DNA of 64,000 nt, taken from the NCBI RefSeq assembly GCF_041886205.1, contig NZ_CP169029.1, one strand, 5' to 3'. Shown in pieces: positions 14,078 to 42,453 of the stretch. A program made the position numbers and the translations under genes. The notes under the pieces are model-generated. The model ran no database searches, had not been told where the DNA came from, and was given only the letters and a program-made list of their open reading frames with translations. The stretch is from Escherichia coli. GTDB lineage: Bacteria; Pseudomonadota; Gammaproteobacteria; Enterobacterales; Enterobacteriaceae. How positions within the stretch are numbered: position 1 is the first letter of the stretch; each line of letters opens with the position of its first letter.

Positions 14078-14350
14078 GAGTTCCCCGCGCCAGCGGGGAT
14101 AAACCGTTCGCTGGCAATCCACTCAGGAATTTCGGGAAGAGTTCCCCGCGCCAGCGGGGATAAACCGGGCAGTACCGACATGGACGGTCACCACGAGTTG
14201 AGTTCCCCGCGCCAGCGGGGATAAACCGTGTATAGCGCCAAAATTGACGAAAGACATGTTGAGTTCCCCGCGCCAGCGGGGATAAACCGGTTGTAGCTGA
14301 CAATGTAAATCATGGATTTACGAGTTCCCCGTGCCAGCGGGGATAACCAT
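14078..14350 (+). CRISPR. Type I-E CRISPR array: 5 repeats (last degenerate), 4 spacers of 32 bp
   Basis: 29-bp repeat GAGTTCCCCGCGCCAGCGGGGATAAACCG at 14078, 14139, 14200, 14261; degenerate terminal repeat gagttccccgtgccagcggggataaccat at 14322..14350. Spacers at 14107..14138, 14168..14199, 14229..14260, 14290..14321. Confidence 0.97.
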
Positions 14351-19981: not shown

Positions 19982-20245
19982 ATATTGCCGGATAAATTAA
20001 ACGCCTCTGTCAGAAATGATGGGGGCGTTTTTATTTTGCGAGCAGCATTCCTGATTTTAAACGTGAAAATAGCAGAGGGAATCAGCAGGCATAGAATGGC
20101 GTCGGGTGCTTGAGGCTGTCTGGCGTTGAGCATTCGCGAGGTTCCAGATGGACAAAAGCCCCAGGCGATATTTCTATCAACCTGAGGCCAGCGTTCGAAC
20201 CTAAGCAATTCGGATGTTAGTCTCTTCTTTGCAGGGAGGCAAGAC

Positions 20246-20398
20246 ATGCTGACAAAATATGCCCTTGTGGCAATCATCGTACTGTGTTGTACAGTACTGG
20301 GATTCACGCTGATGGTAGGCGACTCGTTGTGTGAGTTGAGTATCAGAGAACGTGGTATGGAGTTTAAGGCAGTTCTCGCTTACGAATCGAAGAAGTAG
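20246..20398 (+). CDS. Hok/Gef-family type I toxin-like small membrane peptide (50 aa)
   Basis: Unlisted small [53 protein letters not shown]: single TM helix followed by the Hok signature ...SLCE(L/I)..R.....E.A...AYES.K; GGAGG RBS upstream (gcagggaggcaagacATG). Confidence 0.7.
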
Positions 20399-20399
20399 C

Positions 20400-20635
20400 C
20401 ACCACGCGGGGGGTAAAATCCCGCGTACTGAATTGTGATGGTTTGGTCTCCTGCACCCTTTTTAATTTATATTGTTTATGTGAATATTATGCCTGTGTTT
20501 ATTATTTATATGTTTTATAGATGAAAACCATTGAATTATTCACAATGTAAATATTTTAATGAACGATATATATCACAGATAATTTTTAATATATGCGTAA
20601 ATATCCTTTAAGTTTTACGAAAGGATAAAAACATT
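20400..20635 (+). promoter_or_regulatory. AT-rich cas3 upstream/promoter region
   Basis: Strongly AT-rich ~230-bp tract immediately upstream of the cas3 start; in K-12 the equivalent region holds the H-NS-repressed cas3 promoter (from memory). No -10/-35 assigned. Confidence 0.45.
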
Positions 20636-22063
20636 GTGACTTTCTTTGATTTCTGGGGAAAAAACCGACGCGGCGAGAAAGAGGGCGGCGACGACTATCA
20701 TCTACTTTGCTGGCATTCGCTGGATGTAGCCGCGATGGGCTATTTAATGGTTAAAAGCAATTGCTTCGGGCTGGCTGACTATTTTCGTCAACTAGGTTTC
20801 GATGATACGGAGCAGGCAGCACAATTTTTCGCCTGGCTATTGTGCTGGCACGATATTGGAAAATTTGCCCGCTCTTTTCAGCAACTTTATCTGCATCCAC
20901 AACTCAAGGTTCCGGAAGGCGCAAGAAAAAATAACGAAAAGATCTCTCATTCAACGCTGGGTTACTGGTTGTGGAATCATTATTTAATTGAATGTGACGA
21001 GTTGCTTCCTTCCTCTTCACTCTCTCCCCGCAAACTTAAACGGGTAATAGCGATGTGGATGCCCATGAGCACGGGGCATCATGGTCGCCCACCTGACCGT
21101 ATTGATGAACTGGATAATTTTCTGCCTGAAGACAAAGTTGCCGCGCGAGATTTTCTCCTTGAAATCAAGTCACTGTTCCCGCTCATAGAGATCCCCACAT
21201 TCTGGGATGATGACGAGGACGTTGAACTTATAAAACAACTTTCCTGGTATATCTCTGCAACCGTCGTACTTGCAGACTGGACAGGATCGTCAACGAGATT
21301 TTTTCCACGCGTCGCACACCCAATGGATATTAAAGATTACTGGCAGAAGGCTTTAGTGCAGGCTCAAAACGCCTTAACCGTCTTTCCTCCAAAAGCAGAA
21401 ACCGCACCTTTCACCGGAATTAATACACTGTTTCCTTTTATTGAGAATCCGACACCGTTACAGCAAAAGGTGCTGGAACTGGATATCAGCCGGCCCGGGC
21501 CACAGTTATTTATTCTGGAGGATGTAACCGGCGCAGGTAAAACAGAAGCGGCGCTTATCCTGGCGCACAGGTTGATAGCTGCGGGGAAAGCTCAGGGGCT
21601 GTTTTTTGGTCTGCCAACAATGGCAACGGCCAATGCCATGTACGATCGGCTGGTCAAAACCTGGCTTGCTTTCTATTCGCCAGAATCCCGCCCCAGCCTG
21701 GTGCTGGCACACAGTGCCCGCACATTAATGGACCGCTTTAATGACTCACTCTGGTCCGGTGATTTAGTCGGGTCAGAAGAACCGGATGAACAAACGTTCA
21801 GTCAGGGATGTGCAGCCTGGTTTGCCGACAGTAACAAGAAGGCTTTACTGGCTGAAATTGGCGTCGGCACGCTGGATCAGGCGATGATGGCAGTGATGCC
21901 GTTTAAACATAATAATCTGCGGCTTCTGGGGTTGAGTAACAAAATCCTGCTGGCTGATGAGATCCACGCCTGTGACGCTTACATGTCGTGCATTCTTGAA
22001 GGGCTGATCGAGCGGCAGGCGCGTGGCGGAAACAGCGTTATTTTGCTTTCTGCTACGTTATCT
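20636..22063 (+). pseudogene. cas3: Truncated cas3 (type I-E): HD nuclease plus first half of helicase core; 3' half deleted
   Basis: ORF begins at GTG 20636; HD motifs (LLCWHSLDVAA, CWHDIGKF), Walker A (VTGAGKTEAA) and DExH box (LLADEIHA) present; coding sequence ends ...NSVILLSATLS and runs directly into a CRISPR repeat at 22064. Intact Cas3 is ~890 aa; only ~476 codons remain. Confidence 0.85.
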
Positions 22064-28649: not shown

Positions 28650-29675
28650 TTGAGTTTGATAATCTCACTTACCTCCACGGTAAACCGCAAGGCACCGGGC
28701 TGCTGAAAGCCAATCCGGAAGACTTTGTGGTGGTGGAAGATTTGGGCTTTGAGCCTGATGGTGAAGGTGAGCATATTCTGGTTAGAATCCTCAAAAACGG
28801 TTGCAATACCCGTTTTGTGGCGGATGCACTGGCGAAATTCCTGAAAATTCATTCCCGTGAAGTCAGCTTTGCTGGGCAAAAAGACAAACATGCTGTTACA
28901 GAACAGTGGTTATGCGCTCGCGTGCCGGGCAAGGAAATGCCCGATCTGAGCGCCTTTCAACTGGAAGGCTGCCAGGTGCTGGAGTATGCGCGGCACAAGC
29001 GCAAGCTGCGTTTAGGGGCGCTGAAAGGTAACGCCTTTACCCTGGTTCTGCGCGAAGTGAGCAATCGCGGTGACGTTGAACAACGTCTGATCGATATTTG
29101 CGTAAAAGGTGTACCGAACTACTTCGGTGCCCAACGTTTTGGGATTGGCGGTAGCAACTTGCAGGGCGCGCTGCGCTGGGCGCAAACCAATACTCCGGTG
29201 CGCGATCGCAATAAACGGAGTTTTTGGTTGTCGGCAGCCCGCAGTGCGTTGTTTAATCAGATTGTTGCTGAGCGCCTCAAAAAAGCAGACGTTAATCAAG
29301 TTGTTGACGGCGATGCGCTACAATTAGCCGGACGTGGTAGCTGGTTTGTTGCAACCACCGAAGAACTGGTGGAATTACAGCGTCGCGTCAACGATAAAGA
29401 GCTGATGATAACCGCCGCATTGCCGGGCAGTGGCGAATGGGGAACTCAGCGTGAAGCGCTGGCATTCGAACAGGCAGCTGTCGCCGCAGAAACTGAATTA
29501 CAAGCCTTACTGGTGCGCGAAAAAGTTGAAGCCGCGCGCAGAGCGATGCTGCTGTATCCGCAACAATTAAGCTGGAACTGGTGGGATGACGTCACCGTAG
29601 AGATCCGTTTCTGGCTTCCGGCGGGTAGTTTTGCAACCAGCGTTGTCAGGGAACTTATCAACACAACAGGTGATT

Positions 29676-29695
<20 letters not shown>
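28646..29695 (+). CDS. truD: tRNA pseudouridine(13) synthase
   Basis: 349-aa ORF; position after ispF and overall sequence consistent with TruD. Confidence 0.93.
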
Positions 29696-31057
<1,362 letters not shown>

Positions 31058-31196
31058 AACGTGAGGAAATACCTGGATTTTTCCTGGTTATTTTGCCGCA
31101 GGTCAGCGTATCGTGAACATCTTTTCCAGTGTTCAGTATGGTGCCTTGCACGGTAATTATGTCACTGGTTATTAACCAATTTTTCCTGGGGGATAA

Positions 31197-32336
31197 ATGA
31201 GCGCGGGAAGCCCAAAATTCACCGTTCGCCGCATTGCGGCTTTGTCACTGGTTTCGCTATGGCTGGCAGGCTGTTCTGACACTTCAAATCCACCGGCACC
31301 GGTCAGCTCCGTTAATGGCAATGCGCCTGCAAATACCAATTCTGGTATGTTGATTACGCCGCCGCCGAAAATGGGGACGACGTCTACAACCCAGCAACCG
31401 CAAATTCAGCCGGTACAGCAGCCACAAATTCAGGCTACTCAACAACCGCAAATCCAGCCAGTGCAGCCAGTAGCTCAGCAGCCGGTACAGATGGAAAACG
31501 GACGCATCGTCTACAACCGTCAGTATGGGAACATTCCGAAAGGCAGTTATAGCGGCAGTACCTATACCGTGAAAAAAGGCGACACACTTTTCTATATCGC
31601 CTGGATTACTGGCAACGATTTCCGTGACCTTGCTCAGCGCAACAATATTCAGGCACCATACGCGCTGAACGTAGGTCAGACCTTACAGGTGGGGAATGCT
31701 TCCGGTACGCCAATCACTGGCGGAAATGCCATTACCCAGGCCGACGCAGCAGAGCAAGGAGTTGTGATCAAGCCTGCACAAAATTCCACCGTTGCTGTTG
31801 CGTCGCAACCGACAATTACGTATTCTGAGTCTTCGGGTGAACAGAGTGCTAACAAAATGTTGCCTAACAACAAGCCAACTGCGACCACGGTCACAGCGCC
31901 TGTAACGGTACCAACAGCAAGCACAACCGAGCCGACTGTCAGCAGTACATCAACCAGTACGCCTATCTCCACCTGGCGCTGGCCGACTGAGGGCAAAGTG
32001 ATCGAAACCTTTGGCGCTTCTGAGGGGGGCAACAAGGGGATTGATATCGCAGGCAGCAAAGGACAGGCAATTATCGCGACCGCAGATGGCCGCGTTGTTT
32101 ATGCCGGTAACGCGCTGCGCGGCTACGGTAATCTGATTATCATCAAACATAATGATGATTACCTGAGTGCCTACGCCCATAACGACACAATGCTGGTCCG
32201 GGAACAACAAGAAGTGAAGGCGGGGCAAAAAATAGCAACCATGGGTAGCACCGGAACCAGTTCAACACGCTTGCATTTTGAAATTCGTTACAAGGGGAAA
32301 TCCGTAAACCCGCTGCGTTATTTGCCGCAGCGATAA
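31197..32336 (+). CDS. nlpD: Murein hydrolase activator lipoprotein NlpD (LysM + M23 domain)
   Basis: 379-aa ORF; lipobox (LAGCSD), Q/P-rich repeats (QQPQIQP), LysM region and C-terminal LytM/M23 domain. Confidence 0.95.
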
Positions 32337-32398
32337 ATCGGCGGAACCAGGCTTTTGCTTGAATGTTCCGTCAAGGGATCACGGGTAGGAGCCACCTT

Positions 32399-33391
32399 AT
32401 GAGTCAGAATACGCTGAAAGTTCATGATTTAAATGAAGATGCGGAATTTGATGAGAACGGAGTTGAGGTTTTTGACGAAAAGGCCTTAGTAGAAGAGGAA
32501 CCCAGTGATAACGATTTGGCCGAAGAGGAACTGTTATCGCAGGGAGCCACACAGCGTGTGTTGGACGCGACTCAGCTTTACCTTGGTGAGATTGGTTATT
32601 CACCACTGTTAACGGCCGAAGAAGAAGTTTATTTTGCGCGTCGCGCACTGCGTGGAGATGTCGCCTCTCGCCGCCGGATGATCGAGAGTAACTTGCGTCT
32701 GGTGGTAAAAATTGCCCGCCGTTATGGCAATCGTGGTCTGGCGTTGCTGGACCTTATCGAAGAGGGCAACCTGGGGCTGATCCGCGCGGTAGAGAAGTTT
32801 GACCCGGAACGTGGTTTCCGCTTCTCAACATACGCAACCTGGTGGATTCGCCAGACGATTGAACGGGCGATTATGAACCAAACCCGTACTATTCGTTTGC
32901 CGATTCACATCGTAAAGGAGCTGAACGTTTACCTGCGAACCGCACGTGAGTTGTCCCATAAGCTGGACCATGAACCAAGTGCGGAAGAGATCGCAGAGCA
33001 ACTGGATAAGCCAGTTGATGACGTCAGCCGTATGCTTCGTCTTAACGAGCGCATTACCTCGGTAGACACCCCGCTGGGTGGTGATTCCGAAAAAGCGTTG
33101 CTGGACATCCTGGCCGATGAAAAAGAGAACGGTCCGGAAGATACCACGCAAGATGACGATATGAAGCAGAGCATCGTCAAATGGCTGTTCGAGCTGAACG
33201 CCAAACAGCGTGAAGTACTGGCACGTCGATTCGGTTTGCTGGGGTACGAAGCGGCAACACTGGAAGATGTAGGTCGTGAAATTGGCCTCACCCGTGAACG
33301 TGTTCGCCAGATTCAGGTTGAAGGCCTGCGCCGTTTGCGCGAAATCCTGCAAACGCAGGGGCTGAATATCGAAGCGCTGTTCCGCGAATAA
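32399..33391 (+). CDS. rpoS: RNA polymerase sigma factor RpoS (sigma-38)
   Basis: Start at internal ATG 32399 ([21 protein letters not shown]...), 330 aa, sigma-70 family regions 2-4; codon 33 is GAG (Glu). Confidence 0.96.
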
Positions 33392-33408
33392 GTAAGCATC
33401 TGTCAGAA

Positions 33409-33442
33409 AGGCCAGTCTCAAGCGAGGCTGGCCTTTTTCTTT
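33409..33442 (+). terminator. Rho-independent terminator downstream of rpoS
   Basis: aggccagtctc-aagc-gaggctggcct hairpin followed by tttttctttt. Confidence 0.75.
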
Positions 33443-33511
33443 TGTTTGGGGAGTCGATGTGTTTTGTCGCCTGGATAAGACATGTCAGCGTCCCACCCGG
33501 CAATCAGCATC

Positions 33512-33919
33512 CTATTTGCTCATCATCTTGCGCACCAGCTGCATAAACAGCTCCTGCTCTTCTCCACTCAAACGCCCCAAAAATTCCTCATCCACGCTGT
33601 CACCAATGGGGATCGCCGCAGCAAGTACCTTTTCTCCTTCGGCAGTCAGCCAGACAAAGCGTCGCCGCTTGTCAGCGGCGTCATGTTCACGTCTGACTAA
33701 GCCACGATTTTCCATTCTTGCCAACATTTCTGCCAGCGTTGCTTTGGTGCTGACGGCTGCTTCCATCAGTGCAACCTGTTCGATACCAGGCTTATCAGCA
33801 ATGGCGCGCATCACCGCGTACTGCGGTTTGGTCAGATCAGGTAGCTCATGCTGCCAGCGAGATGTGTGCTGCTGAAAAAGCTGTCGTAACTGATGGAACG
33901 CTTTATTTCGTAACGCCAT
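33512..33919 (-). CDS. MarR/SlyA-family transcriptional regulator
   Basis: 135-aa ORF with winged-helix MarR pattern (LTKPQYAVMRAIADKPGIEQVALMEAA...); divergent from the decarboxylase cluster. Confidence 0.85.
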   Translation of the reverse strand: MALRNKAFHQLRQLFQQHTSRWQHELPDLTKPQYAVMRAIADKPGIEQVALMEAAVSTKATLAEMLARMENRGLVRREHDAADKRRRFVWLTAEGEKVLAAAIPIGDSVDEEFLGRLSGEEQELFMQLVRKMMSK

Positions 33920-34065
33920 GTAAACTCCGGGCTAATTCTCTGCCGCTATCATAGCGGTTTTTCAGTGACGAAGAAGATGTTGTTACTTTTCAGTGCTTGC
34001 CGCGATGAAAACAGAGGCGTATTTTAATAATAACGTTCGTATACGAACAATTAAGAGAATAAACA

Positions 34066-34659
34066 ATGAGACTGATCGTCGGGATGACAGGGGCTACCGG
34101 TGCGCCTCTTGGGGTGGCATTACTGCAAGCGCTGCGTGAGATGCCGAATGTCGAGACTCATCTGGTGATGTCAAAGTGGGCGAAAACCACCATTGAACTG
34201 GAAACGCCTTACAGCGCCCGCGATGTTGCTGCCCTCGCAGACTTCAGTCATAACCCGGCGGATCAGGCGGCGACCATCTCCTCAGGTTCCTTTCATACCG
34301 ACGGCATGATCGTTATTCCGTGCAGTATGAAAACGCTCGCCGGTATCCGTGCCGGTTACGCCGATGGCCTGGTAGGGCGCGCGGCGGACGTCGTGCTCAA
34401 AGAAGGCCGCAAACTAGTGCTGGTGCCGCGTGAAATGCCGCTTAGCACCATCCATCTCGAAAATATGCTCGCACTTTCACGCATGGGCGTGGCGATGGTG
34501 CCGCCGATGCCTGCCTTTTATAACCATCCCGAAACGGTAGAGGACATTGTCCACCACGTGGTAGCCCGCGTGCTGGATCAATTTGGCCTCGAACATCCCC
34601 ACGCCAGGCGCTGGCAAGGATTGCCGCAGGCCCGGAATTTTTCTCAGGAGAATGAATAA
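34066..34659 (+). CDS. ecdB: UbiX-like flavin prenyltransferase (decarboxylase B subunit)
   Basis: 197-aa ORF MRLIVGMTGATGAPLGVALLQALRE...; flavoprotein UbiX/Pad1 family signature. Symbol from memory of the O157-type rpoS-mutS segment. Confidence 0.85.
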   Translation: MRLIVGMTGATGAPLGVALLQALREMPNVETHLVMSKWAKTTIELETPYSARDVAALADFSHNPADQAATISSGSFHTDGMIVIPCSMKTLAGIRAGYADGLVGRAADVVLKEGRKLVLVPREMPLSTIHLENMLALSRMGVAMVPPMPAFYNHPETVEDIVHHVVARVLDQFGLEHPHARRWQGLPQARNFSQENE

Positions 34660-36086
34660 TGGCATTTGATGATTTACGCAGCTTTTTACAGGCGCTTGAT
34701 GACCACGGCCAGTTACTGAAAATCAGCGAAGAGGTGAACGCTGAGCCGGATTTGGCCGCTGCTGCCAATGCCACCGGGCGTATCGGAGACGGCGCACCGG
34801 CGCTGTGGTTTGATAATATTCGCGGCTTTACCGATGCACGCGTGGCGATGAATACCATCGGTTCCTGGCAGAACCACGCGATTTCCCTCGGCCTGCCACC
34901 AAACACCCCGGTCAAAAAGCAGATTGATGAGTTTATCCGCCGCTGGGATAACTTCCCGATTGCCCCGGAGCGCCGCGCCAATCCTGCCTGGGCGCAGAAC
35001 ACCGTTGATAGCGACGAGATTAACCTGTTCGATATCCTGCCGCTGTTTCGTTTAAACGATGGCGATGGCGGTTTCTATCTCGACAAAGCCTGCGTGGTTT
35101 CCCGCGATCCGCTCGACCCAGATAACTTCGGCAAGCAGAACGTCGGCATCTACCGCATGGAAGTGAAGGGCAAGCGTAAGCTCGGCCTGCAACCGGTGCC
35201 GATGCACGATATCGCCCTGCATCTGCATAAAGCAGAAGAGCGCGGTGAAGATCTGCCGATTGCGATCACGCTCGGTAACGATCCGATCATCACGCTGATG
35301 GGGGCCACGCCGCTGAAATACGATCAGTCTGAGTATGAAATGGCTGGCGCGCTGCGTGAAAGTCCATACCCGATCGCCACCGCGCCATTGACTGGTTTTG
35401 ATGTGCCGTGGGGTTCAGAAGTGATCCTCGAAGGGGTCATCGAAAGCCGTAAACGCGAAATCGAAGGGCCGTTCGGTGAGTTTACCGGACACTACTCCGG
35501 CGGACGTAACATGACCGTGGTGCGCATCGATAAAGTCTCTTACCGCACCAGGCCGATTTTCGAATCGCTGTACCTCGGTATGCCGTGGACCGAAATCGAC
35601 TACCTGATGGGGCCAGCCACCTGCGTGCCGCTGTATCAGCAGCTGAAAGCCGAGTTCCCGGAAGTGCAGGCGGTAAACGCCATGTACACCCACGGCCTGC
35701 TGGCGATTATCTCCACCAAAAAACGCTACGGCGGCTTTGCTCGCGCGGTGGGCCTTCGTGCGATGACCACGCCGCACGGTCTGGGCTACGTGAAGATGGT
35801 GATTATGGTCGATGAAGACGTTGATCCGTTCAACCTGCCGCAGGTGATGTGGGCGCTCTCCTCGAAAGTGAACCCGGCAGGGGATTTGGTGCAGTTGCCG
35901 AATATGTCCGTGCTGGAACTCGACCCAGGCTCAAGCCCGGCGGGGATCACCGACAAGCTGATTATCGACGCCACTACGCCTGTCGCCCCGGACAACCGTG
36001 GTCACTACAGCCAGCCGGTGGTGGATTTGCCGGAAACCAAAGCCTGGGCTGAAAAACTGACCGCTATGCTGGCTGCACGTAAATAA
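34659..36086 (+). CDS. ecdC: UbiD-family reversible (hydroxy)arylic acid decarboxylase, C subunit
   Basis: 475-aa ORF with UbiD-family length and conserved blocks; start overlaps ecdB stop. Confidence 0.85.
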   Translation: MAFDDLRSFLQALDDHGQLLKISEEVNAEPDLAAAANATGRIGDGAPALWFDNIRGFTDARVAMNTIGSWQNHAISLGLPPNTPVKKQIDEFIRRWDNFPIAPERRANPAWAQNTVDSDEINLFDILPLFRLNDGDGGFYLDKACVVSRDPLDPDNFGKQNVGIYRMEVKGKRKLGLQPVPMHDIALHLHKAEERGEDLPIAITLGNDPIITLMGATPLKYDQSEYEMAGALRESPYPIATAPLTGFDVPWGSEVILEGVIESRKREIEGPFGEFTGHYSGGRNMTVVRIDKVSYRTRPIFESLYLGMPWTEIDYLMGPATCVPLYQQLKAEFPEVQAVNAMYTHGLLAIISTKKRYGGFARAVGLRAMTTPHGLGYVKMVIMVDEDVDPFNLPQVMWALSSKVNPAGDLVQLPNMSVLELDPGSSPAGITDKLIIDATTPVAPDNRGHYSQPVVDLPETKAWAEKLTAMLAARK

Positions 36087-36096
36087 GGAGAAGAAG

Positions 36097-36333
36097 ATGA
36101 TTTGTCCACGTTGTGCCGATGAACAGATTGAAGTGATGGCGAAATCGCCGGTGAAAGATGTCTGGACGGTATATCAGTGCCAGCATTGCCTTTATACCTG
36201 GCGCGATACTGAACCGCTGCGGCGTACCAGCCGCGAACATTATCCCGAAGCGTTCCGCATGACGCAGAAAGATATTGATGACGCGCCGATGGTGCCGAGC
36301 ATCCCGCCGCTGCTGGCGGCAGATAAGCGTTGA
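36097..36333 (+). CDS. ecdD: Decarboxylase small (D) subunit, zinc-ribbon-like
   Basis: 78-aa ORF MICPRCADEQIEVMAKSPVKDVWTVYQCQHCLYTWRD... with CxxC...CxxC pattern, immediately after ecdC. Confidence 0.75.
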   Translation: MICPRCADEQIEVMAKSPVKDVWTVYQCQHCLYTWRDTEPLRRTSREHYPEAFRMTQKDIDDAPMVPSIPPLLAADKR

Positions 36334-36374
36334 TAAAAAAGTGCCGGGTAGAGGCTTTGCTTTACCCGGCCTCA

Positions 36375-37031
36375 TTACTTTATTTTATAAAATGACAGCC
36401 GCCCGCTTTTCGGCGTGTCGGTATCAATATAAATCTGGTTAGCGAAGGTCTGAATGTTATCAAACATCATATGTCCAAATATAAAATAATCAGCGCCGTT
36501 TATTTGTTGTAACTCGCCATTAAGCGATTTCTGCACACGATCAACAGGCCAGAGTAATTCGCTTTCTACTATTTCTTTACCAAACTGATATTCATCACCC
36601 GGATAATCTGCATGTGCGATGACATATTTTATGTTGTCATTAATGATTTCAATAATATGTGGAAGGTGATGGAATTTCAGCAACAGATCTATTGCCTCTT
36701 GTTGCTCTGAATCATTTAAATCGAAAAACCAGTCACCACCGCTGGCAAGCCACATATTTCCATCGCCAGTTTCGAATGCATCAAGCGCCATCGCTTCATG
36801 GTTGCCTTTAACCGATGTAAACCAGGGCTGGTTTAACAGGCGTAGCACGTTAAGACTCTCCGGCCCACGATCAATGTTATCGCCGACAGAAATAAGTAAG
36901 TCTGTTTCAGGGCAAAAAGAGAGTAGATGTAAGCGGGATTGTAATAATTGATAGTCACCATGAATATCACCAACGGCCCATATATGGCGATAGTGATGGG
37001 CATTGATTTTTTGATAGCGTGTAGATGGCAT
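36375..37031 (-). CDS. pphB: Serine/threonine protein phosphatase 2
   Basis: 218-aa ORF MPSTRYQKINAHHYRHIWAVGDIHGDYQ...; metallophosphatase motifs GDxHG, GDxxDRG, GNHE. Confidence 0.93.
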   Translation of the reverse strand: MPSTRYQKINAHHYRHIWAVGDIHGDYQLLQSRLHLLSFCPETDLLISVGDNIDRGPESLNVLRLLNQPWFTSVKGNHEAMALDAFETGDGNMWLASGGDWFFDLNDSEQQEAIDLLLKFHHLPHIIEIINDNIKYVIAHADYPGDEYQFGKEIVESELLWPVDRVQKSLNGELQQINGADYFIFGHMMFDNIQTFANQIYIDTDTPKSGRLSFYKIK

Positions 37032-37136
37032 GGTTTTACCCTGTAAAATAAGCTTTCCTATTATACAGGGTGTTTTTATTTTATTCGTCAGTTGTCGTTA
37101 ATATTCCCGATAGCAAAAGACTATCGGGAATTGTTA

Positions 37137-39698
37137 TTACACCAGGCTCTTCAAGCGATAAATCCACTCCAGCGCCTGACGCGGAGTCAGTGAATCCGGA
37201 TCGAGGTTTTCCAGTGCCTCGACCGCAGGCGAGGTTTCTTCCGGTACGGACAGCAAAGACATTTGCGTACCATCCACTTGCGTAGCGGCGGCGTTCGGCG
37301 AAATGCTTTCCAGCTCACGCAGTTTCTGCCGCGCACGCTTGATCACCTCTTTCGGCACACCCGCCAGCGCAGCAACCGCCAGGCCGTAGCTTTTACTCGC
37401 CGCGCCGTCCTGTACGCTGTGCATAAAGGCGATGGTGTCACCGTGCTCCAGCGCATCGAGGTGCACGTTAGCCACGCCTTCCATTTTCTCCGGCAGTTGA
37501 GTCAGCTCGAAGTAATGGGTGGCAAACAACGTCAATGCCTTAATCTTATTCGCCAGATTTTCAGCGCACGCCCACGCCAGCGACAGACCATCGTAAGTGG
37601 ACGTTCCACGCCCAATCTCATCCATCAGCACCAGACTGTACTCGGTGGCGTTATGTAAAATATTGGCGGTTTCGGTCATTTCCACCATAAAGGTTGAACG
37701 CCCGGATGCCAGATCATCCGCTGCCCCTACGCGGGTAAAGATGCGATCGATAGGTCCAATCTCGACTTTTTGTGCCGGTACATAGCTGCCGATGTAGGCC
37801 ATCAGCGCAATCAGTGCGGTCTGGCGCATATAGGTACTTTTACCGCCCATATTCGGACCGGTAATGATCAACATGCGACGCTGCGGCGACAGGTTCAGCG
37901 GGTTGGCGATAAACGGCTCATTCAGCACTTGTTCAACCACCGGATGGCGGCCTTCGGTGATGCGAATACCCGGTTTATCAATAAAGGTCGGGCAGGTGTA
38001 GTTCAGGGTATAGGCCCGCTCCGCCAGGTTAACCAGCACATCAAGTTCTGCCAGTGCGCTTGCGCTCTGTTGCAACGCTTCCAGATGCGGCAACAGCAGG
38101 TCGAACAGCTCTTCATAAAGTTGTTTTTCCAGAGCCAGTGCTTTGCCTTTTGAGGTGAGAACTTTATCTTCGTACTCTTTTAGCTCTGGAATGATGTAGC
38201 GCTCGGCGTTTTTCAGCGTCTGGCGACGCATGTAGTTGATGGGTGCCAGATGGCTTTGCCCACGGCTGATTTGAATGTAGTAGCCGTGCACCGCATTAAA
38301 GCCAACTTTCAGCGTGTCCAGGCCGGTACGTTCACGCTCGCGGACTTCCAGACGCTCCAGATAATCGGTCGCGCCGTCAGCCAGCGCGCGCCACTCATCC
38401 AGCTCTTCGTTATAGCCCGATGCGATAACACCACCGTCGCGTACCAGCACCGGCGGTGTGTCGATGATTGCTCGCTCCAGCAGATCACGCAGCTCGGCAA
38501 ACTCGCCCATCTTCTCACGTAGCGCCTGTACCGGTGCACTATCGACAGTTTCTAACTGCGCACGCAGCTCCGGCAGTTGCTGGAAAGCGTGGCGCATACG
38601 GGCCAGATCGCGTGGGCGAGCAGTTCGTAAAGCCAGACGTGCCAGAATACGTTCCAGGTCGCCGACCTGACGCAGTACCGGCTGCAACTCGGCGGTGAAA
38701 TCCTGCAATGCGCCAATAGTTTGCTGGCGCTCAAGCAACACGCGGGTATCGCGCACTGGCATATGCAGCCAGCGTTTCAGCATACGACTACCCATCGGCG
38801 TGACGGTGCAGTCGAGCACAGAAGCCAGCGTATTTTCCGCACCGCCCGCCAGGTTCTGAGTAATTTCCAGGTTACGACGTGTCGCGGCATCCATAATGAT
38901 GCTGTCCTGCTCACGTTCCATGGTGATAGAACGAATATGCGGCAGGGTCGTGCGTTGGGTATCTTTCGCATACTGCAACAGACAACCGGCAGCACAAAGT
39001 CCGCGCGGCGCGTTCTCGACGCCAAAACCGACCAGATCGCGGGTGCCAAATTGCAGATTCAACTGCTGGCGCGCGGTGTCGATTTCAAACTCCCACAGCG
39101 GGCGACGGCGCAGGCCGCGACGGCCTTCAATCAGCGACATCTCGGCGAAATCTTCTGCATACAGCAGTTCCGCCGGATTAGTGCGTTGCAGCTCTGCCGC
39201 CATCGTTTCGCGGTCGGCCGGTTCGCTCAGGCGAAAACGCCCGGAGCTGATATCCAGCGTCGCGTAGCCGAAACCTTTGCTGTCCTGCCAGATAGCCGCC
39301 AGCAGGTTGTCCTGACGCTCCTGTAACAGGGCTTCATCGCTGATGGTGCCTGGCGTAACGATACGCACAACTTTGCGCTCAACCGGACCTTTGCTGGTCG
39401 CCGGATCGCCAATTTGTTCGCAGATGGCAACGGACTCGCCCTGATTCACCAGTTTGGCGAGATAGTTTTCCACCGCATGGTAGGGAATCCCCGCCATCGG
39501 GATCGGCTCTCCCGCCGAAGCACCGCGTTTGGTCAGTGAAATATCCAGCAGTTGCGACGCGCGTTTTGCGTCGTCATAAAACAGTTCATAAAAATCACCC
39601 ATCCGGTAAAACAGCAGGATCTCGGGATGCTGGGCTTTCAGCTTGAGATACTGCTGCATCATGGGCGTATGGGCGTCGAAATTTTCTATTTCACTCAT
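37137..39698 (-). CDS. mutS: DNA mismatch repair protein MutS
   Basis: 853-aa [43 protein letters not shown]...; Walker A (GPNMGGKST). Confidence 0.97.
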
Positions 39699-39984
39699 GG
39701 GGTTATGTCCGGTTCCCTGATATTAAATGGGGTGTGATGGTTTTTATTTTCGTTGTAATCACATAAGGCGCACATGATACCGGAGTTAATCATTTCAGGG
39801 GAAGAAGCGAACGGCGAGTTCTTGATGCTGGTTCCGGGAAAGATGCTGTTTTGCAGCTTTTGCGTGATGCTTATGAAGCAAGTACGCAAAATTGTATCGG
39901 TTGGCTAACCCTTCTTCTTTAGAGTCATAGTGCCCTTTAAAATTAAGTTGTAATATAAATACATCTTAATGAGGTGGAGGCAGC

Positions 39985-40338
39985 ATGTCCGGCAAGCGTA
40001 TCTCTCGTGAAAAACTGACGATTAAAAAAATGATCGATCTTTATCAAGCGAAATGCCCGCAGGCGTCAGCGGAGCCGGAGCATTACGAGGCGTTGTTTGT
40101 TTACGCGCAAAAGCGGCTGGATAAATGTGTGTTCGGCGAAGAGAAACCAGCCTGTAAGCAGTGTCCGGTGCACTGTTACCAGCCTGCAAAGCGTGAAGAG
40201 ATGAAACAGATTATGCGTTGGGCCGGGCCGAGAATGCTGTGGCGTCATCCGATCTTAACCGTGCGTCATCTCATCGATGACAAGCGTCCGGTGCCAGAAC
40301 TACCGGAAAAATATCGTCCGAAAAAAACTCGTGAATAG
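39985..40338 (+). CDS. ygbA: Nitrous-oxide-stimulated-promoter family protein YgbA
   Basis: 117-aa ORF with Cys-rich core (KCPQA...CKQCPVHCY); divergent from mutS. Confidence 0.85.
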   Translation: MSGKRISREKLTIKKMIDLYQAKCPQASAEPEHYEALFVYAQKRLDKCVFGEEKPACKQCPVHCYQPAKREEMKQIMRWAGPRMLWRHPILTVRHLIDDKRPVPELPEKYRPKKTRE

Positions 40339-40374
40339 TATGCCGGACAGTCAGATCTGTCCGGCAATTTGCAG

Positions 40375-42453
40375 TTAAATCAATGCCGATTTATCAATTC
40401 CCAGTCGCTTCATCCGTGACAGCAGGGTCGTGCGTTTCAGCCCCAGACGTTGCGCAGCGCCTTTAGGCCCGGCAACCACGCCGTTAGTTTCTTTCAGCAC
40501 GCGAACAATCAACTGATATTCATCTTCGCCCTCCTGAGCGACAACCGTTGCGGCAGGCGGCGTTTCAGGCTCCGGTAAAGCAATATCTGGCAATGACAGC
40601 TGCAGCACGTTGCCGCGTGTTAGCAATACCGCGCGCTCAATGACGTTTTCCAGTTCGCGTACGTTACCCGGCCACTCCATATTGCTCAAGGTGCGCAACG
40701 TCTCGGCAGGAATGCTGTCGATATTGCGCCCCAGACGACGGGCAATTTTGAAGGTAAAGGCTTTCGCCAGCAGCGGAATATCTTCCGGACGCTCGCGTAG
40801 TGGCGGCAGGTGGATCGGGAATACGTTCAGGCGGTAATAGAGATCGCTACGGAACTCTCGGTCGGCGACCATTTTTTTCAGATCGCGGTTAGTCGCGGCG
40901 ATTAGACGCACGTCCGTCTGAATGATTTTGTTGCTGCCGAGACGTTCAAACTCCTGTTCCTGTAATACACGCAGCAACTTCGGCTGTAACTCCAGTGGCA
41001 TATCGCCCACTTCATCGAGGAACAGGGAGCTTTTATCCGCCAGTTCAAAACGACCGATACGCTGGGCGCTGGCACCGGTAAAAGCCCCACGCTCATGACC
41101 AAACAGATCGCTCTCCAGCAATCCGGCAGGCATCGCCGCGCAGTTCATTTTGACCATGCGGCGATTATTACGCCCACTGAGATTATGGATCGCGCGGGCA
41201 ATCAGCTCTTTACCCGTGCCAGTTTCACCGAGGATCAGCACGGTACTGTCACTTTGCGCCACCATTTCAACTTGTTTAAGCACGCTGTACATGGCTTCGC
41301 TGCGGCCAATAATCTCGCCAAATTCACTATCAACATTGTTGAGCTGCTCGGTCAGGGCGAGGTTTTCATCAACCAGCCGTTCTTTCAGACGATGGATTTC
41401 CTGATAGGCGAGGGCGTTATCGACAGCGATTGCCACACGTTCGGCAATCTGGCGCAGTAAATTCAGATTGGTAGTGGTAAACACTTTCTCTTCGCATTGC
41501 GCCAGTTTCAGCACGCCCAGCATGGTGTCGCCAGACATCAGCGGTAACAGGCACAAGGTTTGAATCTGGTTGCCCCAGGTGTCGAACAACATGCGTTCAT
41601 AGGGGGCTAAATCGTCCCGCTCGTGGAGATTGATCAGCAGCATCTCTTTACTTTTGAACACGCGTTCGGTGAGGGTTCCGGCTTCATCGACTTCGCTCTG
41701 TTCGTGGGCGGGATGTTGTTTATCAAGATAGTGAGTGGAGTAGATGTTGAGTTTGTTTTTACGGTGGCTGCGTAAGACAATGCTGATATCGTCAATGTCG
41801 AAATAGTAATGGATTTCTTTGGCGACTTCGCTGACCAGTTCGTCCATATCCAGGCGGGAAAGCACCGCGTTGGTGATGGCGACCAGGATGCGGAAGTTAT
41901 CGCGTTCCCGGCATAACAACTCATAGTCGACATTGTTAACGACGCGACTCTGGATTTGTTCGGTGACGACAGAAACGATCTGCGTAAATGTTTGCAGACG
42001 ATTGAACTCTTTTTCGCTCCAGGGGCGATCGTCATAACGAATAAATTCACAGCCACCAAAAATATGCCCTTCCGCCGCCAGTGGCATCAGGCAATAGTGA
42101 CCAAATTTTGGGTATAGCCCACCTGCGGCCAGCTGCGGCCAGGTTTCACAAAATTCTTCGTAACTGCAATGCAGCGTATCAGGGCGCGACAAAATGCTGC
42201 GTACCGGACCGTGTGCCAGAACAGTTTCGTCTTCATATTTAATGGGGGTGTCTTTTTCACGCGATGCGTAATAAGACGCACGTTGAGTCTGCGCTTGCCA
42301 CAACACAATAGCCGCGTTGTCGGCGAGCGCAGAACGCTTTACCAGTTGCGAAAGAGCCTCACACAGCGAGGCCAGATCGGGCTGCTGCAATAGTGTCCGA
42401 GTGATGTCGAACAACCCTTGCTGTCCGAGATCACTCATCGGTGTATATGACAT
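40375..42453 (-). CDS. fhlA: Formate hydrogenlyase transcriptional activator (sigma-54-dependent)
   Basis: Start at internal Met (MSYTPMSDLGQQGLFDITRTLLQQ...), 692 aa; GAF domains, AAA+ sigma-54 interaction domain (GETGTGKE, GAFTGA) and C-terminal HTH. Confidence 0.95.
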   Translation of the reverse strand: MSYTPMSDLGQQGLFDITRTLLQQPDLASLCEALSQLVKRSALADNAAIVLWQAQTQRASYYASREKDTPIKYEDETVLAHGPVRSILSRPDTLHCSYEEFCETWPQLAAGGLYPKFGHYCLMPLAAEGHIFGGCEFIRYDDRPWSEKEFNRLQTFTQIVSVVTEQIQSRVVNNVDYELLCRERDNFRILVAITNAVLSRLDMDELVSEVAKEIHYYFDIDDISIVLRSHRKNKLNIYSTHYLDKQHPAHEQSEVDEAGTLTERVFKSKEMLLINLHERDDLAPYERMLFDTWGNQIQTLCLLPLMSGDTMLGVLKLAQCEEKVFTTTNLNLLRQIAERVAIAVDNALAYQEIHRLKERLVDENLALTEQLNNVDSEFGEIIGRSEAMYSVLKQVEMVAQSDSTVLILGETGTGKELIARAIHNLSGRNNRRMVKMNCAAMPAGLLESDLFGHERGAFTGASAQRIGRFELADKSSLFLDEVGDMPLELQPKLLRVLQEQEFERLGSNKIIQTDVRLIAATNRDLKKMVADREFRSDLYYRLNVFPIHLPPLRERPEDIPLLAKAFTFKIARRLGRNIDSIPAETLRTLSNMEWPGNVRELENVIERAVLLTRGNVLQLSLPDIALPEPETPPAATVVAQEGEDEYQLIVRVLKETNGVVAGPKGAAQRLGLKRTTLLSRMKRLGIDKSALI

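Follow-up and report, generated by a model that had tools for sequence, protein, structure and literature searches.

Background

Codon 33 of rpoS is one of the better described polymorphic sites of Escherichia coli. Among K-12 strains it is TAG in some and encodes Glu, Tyr or Gln in others; natural isolates outside K-12 commonly have GAG, and every VTEC strain tested has GAG compared with CAG in MG1655 (PMC2700278). The substitution C97G, which results in Q33E, is found in most sequenced ECOR strains and the functional activity of the variants is stated to be similar (PMC3074542). Q33E is elsewhere described as very common (PMC5491219). As far as the relevant literature is quoted in PMC2700278, an amber rpoS allele yields a truncated sigma-S, except where the codon is suppressed or translation is re-initiated internally. 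Two further observations pertain to natural isolates: 20–30% of them are rpoS-defective, and the RpoS level varies widely among strains that have identical RpoS proteins (PMC3074542). The segment between rpoS and mutS is also polymorphic. A slyA-kpdBCD layout represents 'pattern I', the O157:H7/EHEC-1 type, and the layout of K-12 represents 'pattern II' (PMC4209514).

The locus described here is from an E. coli sequence of 64,000 nt, termed the window, which is the whole stretch of DNA that was analysed. An initial annotation of this sequence had drawn attention to codon 33 of its rpoS gene.

Results

The rpoS gene and its product

The rpoS coding sequence is at positions 32399–33391 on the plus strand and consists of 330 codons followed by TAA. 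Direct reading of the sequence places the ATG at 32399–32401 and the TAA at 33389–33391. Translation of 32399–33391 gives 330 residues and a single stop, which is terminal, and this confirms the intact 330-codon frame that the initial annotation had reported. A Shine-Dalgarno-like AGGAG, also read from the sequence, is present at positions 32387–32391 (plus strand), 7 nt upstream of the ATG. The list of open reading frames includes a longer in-frame option of 342 aa that starts with the ATG at 32363. This start was rejected; the Shine-Dalgarno sequence, K-12 and the RefSeq annotation all point to 32399. The numbering of codon 33 is correct because K-12 and near-identical genomes in RefSeq are annotated with an rpoS of 993 nt and 330 codons. 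In the near-identical genomes the product is annotated as WP_000081550.1, and the gene order surE-pcm-nlpD-rpoS of the window is that of K-12 and of the RefSeq annotation of these genomes.

Analysis of the window RpoS by Pfam shows that sigma-70 regions 1.2, 2, 3 and 4 are all present and in order. The domains Sigma70_r1_2 (residues 56–88), r2 (94–163), r3 (174–248) and r4 (262–315) all score above the curated cut-offs. Residue 33 is in the N-terminal tail, ahead of region 1.2, which is the first conserved sigma region and starts at residue 56. RpoS chains in solved holoenzyme structures match the window protein with E-values of 1e-210 or lower.

Codon 33 in the window and in other genomes

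Codon 33 is at positions 32495–32497 (plus strand) and is GAG, which encodes Glu; its G is nt 97 of the gene. The initial annotation had given this codon as GAG within gta gaa GAG gaa ccc, and re-reading the frame from the ATG at 32399 yields the same codon and the same flanks.

The prevalence of the three forms of the codon was determined with a 61-mer centred on codon 33, which was searched with GAG, CAG or TAG against 5,426 complete E. coli genomes. The GAG form has exact matches in 4,818 genomes, of 5,414 with any match. GAG is thus the majority state and is present in approximately nine of ten sequenced E. coli. The agreement extends to the entire gene: of the 5,414 genomes matched in a whole-gene search, 5,143 have an rpoS with at least 99% identity to that of the window. 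Approximately 300 matched genomes have differences elsewhere in the 61-mer, and one representative, EC31, was sampled from these. Its 61-mer is only 93.4% identical, yet its codon 33 is GAG and its RpoS protein is listed under the same accession.

The CAG form is found exactly in 173 of the 5,426 genomes. All 60 of the 60 carriers among the matches listed look like K-12 laboratory derivatives, e.g., MG1655, BW25113, DH10B and MC4100, several of these attributions being based on the strain name or the genome size and not on a test. The TAG form is found exactly in 121 of the 5,426 genomes. Among the matches listed, 60 of 60 carriers resemble K-12 stocks, their derivatives or BLR(DE3), and here also several of the K-12 attributions come from the strain name or the genome size. 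The TAG matches listed include W3110, the early K-12 stocks EMG2 and WG1, J53 and NCM3722, as well as apparent J53 transconjugants, O16:H48 mouse-gut isolates and BLR(DE3). The latter is presumably of B origin, with K-12 DNA introduced near recA.

Sigma-S chains of both kinds are found in solved structures: 5ipl_F has E33 and 6kj6_F has Q33, and both are from E. coli. A third chain, 6omf_F, has E33 and differs at residues 24 and 31. We take 6omf_F to be the Salmonella sigma-S, in which case it would be an outgroup.

These searches agree with the statement of the initial annotation that codon 33 is polymorphic with CAG and TAG as the K-12 forms: there are 173 and 121 matches, the carriers listed are K-12-like, and PMC2700278 describes the same. 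TAG and CAG at codon 33 are peculiar to K-12. The further statement that many natural isolates carry GAG is upheld by the 4,818 genomes, by the divergent EC31 and by most of the ECOR strains (PMC3074542). Because Glu33 is found in the 4,818 genomes, in EC31 and in 6omf_F, it is the species-typical state, encoded by GAG, and is probably also the ancestral one. The direction of change suggested by the sequences together with the literature is that an amber mutation changed GAG to TAG in the K-12 lineage, and that some K-12 sublines would then have acquired CAG (Gln).

The rpoS leader and terminator-like hairpin

The upstream gene nlpD is at positions 31197–32336 (plus strand), as shown by the list of open reading frames and by the annotation of K-12 and of a near-identical genome. 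The nlpD start differs between annotations (31197–31241). The K-12 ATG is equivalent to position 31197 and gives 379 aa, and PGAP places the start 45 nt later in the genomes wlxctx60 and 6EVA, which gives 364 aa; at this site the DNA of the two genomes is identical to the window.

In K-12, the main promoter of rpoS and the greater part of its 567-nt leader lie within nlpD. Over the 567 nt that precede the rpoS ATG, the window differs from K-12 by four substitutions, at positions -534, -294, -183 and -162. The final 161 nt, including the Shine-Dalgarno sequence, are unchanged; this stretch presumably holds the sRNA-pairing region. A scan of the whole window with Rfam gave no hit in the rpoS leader and only one elsewhere, sok at 20104–20261. 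A tRNA scan of the window found none.

Downstream of rpoS there is an intrinsic-terminator-like hairpin at positions 33405–33443 (plus strand). Its stem, GGCCAGTCTC/GAGGCTGGCC, is at 33410–33433 and is followed by TTTTTCTTTT. The RNA fold of this hairpin has a value of -27.3 kcal/mol and a z-score of -5.4.

The mutS-rpoS interval

Alignment shows that the window is colinear with K-12 up to position 33437, where the terminator stem ends, and again from 36376, the pphB stop codon. The ygbI-N block of approximately 6 kb, which in K-12 is downstream of rpoS and before pphB and mutS, is absent from the window. Its place is occupied by a 2.9-kb non-K-12 segment at positions 33438–36375, which joins rpoS to pphB-mutS. 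This segment has four genes: a MarR-family regulator (33512–33919, minus strand) and, on the plus strand, the hydroxyarylic acid decarboxylase subunits B, a UbiX-like flavoprotein (34066–34659), C, which is UbiD-like (34659–36086), and D (36097–36333). On the far side of the polymorphic interval are pphB (36375–37031) and mutS (37137–39698), both on the minus strand. The MarR-decarboxylase segment is found in 2,377 of the 5,426 genomes. With ygbN (o454) absent, and the slyA-like/MarR gene and decarboxylase BCD directly between rpoS and pphB-mutS, the arrangement is that of pattern I.

The breakpoints of the segment coincide with the end of the terminator stem (33437/33438) and with the pphB stop codon (36375/36376), so that entire gene cassettes are swapped and both flanking genes stay intact. 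Divergence from K-12 is uneven on the two sides of the segment, 0.85% on the truD-rpoS side (28950–33437) and 2.9% on the pphB-mutS-ygbA-fhlA side (36376–41791). This unevenness is in line with the mutS recombination that PMC4209514 describes.

At the far end of mutS, positions 39673–39845 of the window (173 bp, comprising the first 9 mutS codons and upstream sequence) are uninterrupted. In the otherwise identical wlxctx60 they are replaced by an island of approximately 20.4 kb (L002 3934–24328). The island carries a tyrosine integrase, ISEcp1-blaCTX-M-55, a Tn3 remnant, qnrS4, ISKpn19 and IS1, as well as the reverse transcriptase and effector of retron Eco8. It also provides a substitute MutS N-terminus, MNEEIDKDFSSHTPMM..., which replaces the one present in the window.

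Other features of the window

A hok/sok-type toxin-antitoxin module is present at positions 20104–20398, between cysH and a cas3 remnant. The sok hit in Rfam has a score of 108 bits (20104–20261), and a coding sequence of the Hok/Gef family is at approximately 20246–20398. The CRISPR-Cas locus is decayed, with a frameshifted and truncated cas3'' pseudogene at approximately 20593–22063. The annotation of the closest genome has no cas genes besides this pseudogene. An orphan CRISPR array of approximately 270 bp is found near queE, at approximately 14078–14350.

Discussion

Strain background

The window rpoS is almost certainly an ordinary wild-type allele of natural E. coli that encodes full-length sigma-S with Glu33, in a non-K-12 host with an interval of the O157:H7 type. 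None of the results is at odds with this. The host is a non-K-12 strain close to wlxctx60, from bear faeces in Japan, and 6EVA, from human faeces in Singapore. These natural isolates have 99.97–100% identity to the window; for 6EVA the value is 99.97%, with 10 mismatches and no gaps over 39 kb. The initial annotation had taken the GAG codon as a sign of a non-K-12 background. The background itself is borne out by the absence of ygbI-N, by the 2.9-kb segment and by the near-identity to wlxctx60 and 6EVA. Codon 33 as GAG is, by itself, not strict proof of a non-K-12 origin, because some K-12 stocks have been reported with GAG (PMC2700278); the neighbouring gene content is such proof.

The same report of Glu at codon 33 in some K-12 strains (PMC2700278) is what could be said in favour of the window coming from a K-12 derivative that reverted to GAG at codon 33. 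Against this, 4.5 kb around rpoS has 38 substitutions relative to MG1655, and pphB-mutS-fhlA has only 97.1% identity to K-12. In addition, ygbI-N is missing and the 2.9-kb non-K-12 segment is in its place. A search with the first 25 kb of the window yielded 9 genomes with at least 80% coverage and no K-12 among the matches listed. A reverted K-12 derivative is thus so improbable that it was rejected on the basis of SNP density and gene content, and a natural non-K-12 strain is the reading retained. The two remaining alternatives pertain to RpoS level and activity. According to one, the rpoS sequence is undamaged and the strain is nevertheless low in RpoS or attenuated, from causes that lie beyond the coding sequence, e.g., the four leader SNPs or, elsewhere in the genome, rssB, crl, Hfq/sRNA or ppGpp control. 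This is consistent with the very different RpoS levels of ECOR strains whose RpoS proteins are identical (PMC3074542) and with the four leader substitutions at -534, -294, -183 and -162. The sequence of the gene itself points the other way: coding changes are limited to codon 33 and two synonymous sites, the last 161 nt and the Shine-Dalgarno sequence are unchanged, and the rpoS of an O157:H7 strain has the same sequence (100% identity). A strain low in RpoS is therefore considered unlikely, with some chance of being correct.

According to the other alternative, E33 and Q33 are not equivalent, and a charge change in the N-terminal tail would alter the turnover of sigma-S, e.g., in a ClpXP/RssB-dependent manner, or its activity. 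The site belongs to the acidic N-terminal tail and not to a structured region, and the sigma-S N-terminus contributes to ClpX recognition, which favours a difference between the two forms. Because residue 33 precedes the conserved sigma regions, E versus Q would be expected to matter little. Sigma-S chains of both kinds are represented in the PDB (5ipl_F with E33 and 6kj6_F with Q33). When the literature was searched for reports that E33 and Q33 differ in function, the only relevant statement was one of similar activity for the Q33E variants (PMC3074542). Non-equivalence is held to be quite improbable. If it were true, what is known of sigma-S dynamics from MG1655 would not apply in every detail to natural strains with E33, such as that of the window.

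Function of the allele

The initial annotation had described the allele as functional. This holds as a deduction from a frame without interruption, a full set of sigma-70 regions and a near-unchanged leader, and the RpoS activity itself is predicted. A functional rpoS allele is the best inference, because the frame is intact, the four sigma-70 regions are present, there are few changes in the leader and the gene is followed by a strong terminator-like hairpin. An intact open reading frame is no guarantee of a strong RpoS phenotype, because RpoS levels vary among strains and 20–30% of natural isolates are defective (PMC3074542). The apparently intact gene would suggest no obvious loss of the general stress response, unlike in those defective isolates.

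The Glu33 form of rpoS is the allele of most E. coli at a polymorphic site that has been well studied, and it is already known from the literature. GAG at codon 33 is a handy marker of provenance and a sanity check, as it represents the species-typical allele rather than a K-12 laboratory form. Beyond annotation it has little significance, and codon 33 raises no new biological question.

Comparison with known rpoS alleles and intervals

The rpoS gene of MG1655 (b2741, NP_417221.1; NC_000913.3) is equal in length to that of the window, and the two are identical at 990 of 993 nt and at 329 of 330 residues. The sole protein change is E33 versus Q33, which results from G in the window and C in MG1655 at nt 97. 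The synonymous differences are in codon 273, which is GTA in the window and GTG in MG1655, and in codon 330, which is GAA in the window and GAG in MG1655. The K-12 rpoS(Am) allele, which has TAG and is found in W3110, EMG2, WG1, J53 and NCM3722, has the same 61-mer as the window except for the first base of codon 33. Where this allele has an amber codon, the window has a sense codon and a full-length product. The rpoS gene of the O157:H7 strain TR01 has 100% nucleotide identity with the window gene.

The genes nlpD-pcm-surE-truD flank rpoS in both MG1655 and the window, whereas downstream there is ygbN-ygbI in MG1655 and MarR-ecdBCD in the window. The 2.9-kb segment is approximately 96% identical to the nearest genomes listed besides wlxctx60, and those are bovine strains. 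The closest genomes to the window, wlxctx60 and 6EVA, are not O157:H7. The layout of the window, with rpoS, a MarR/slyA-like gene, kpdBCD/ecdBCD, pphB and mutS, and without ygbN/o454, is that of the O157:H7-type interval.
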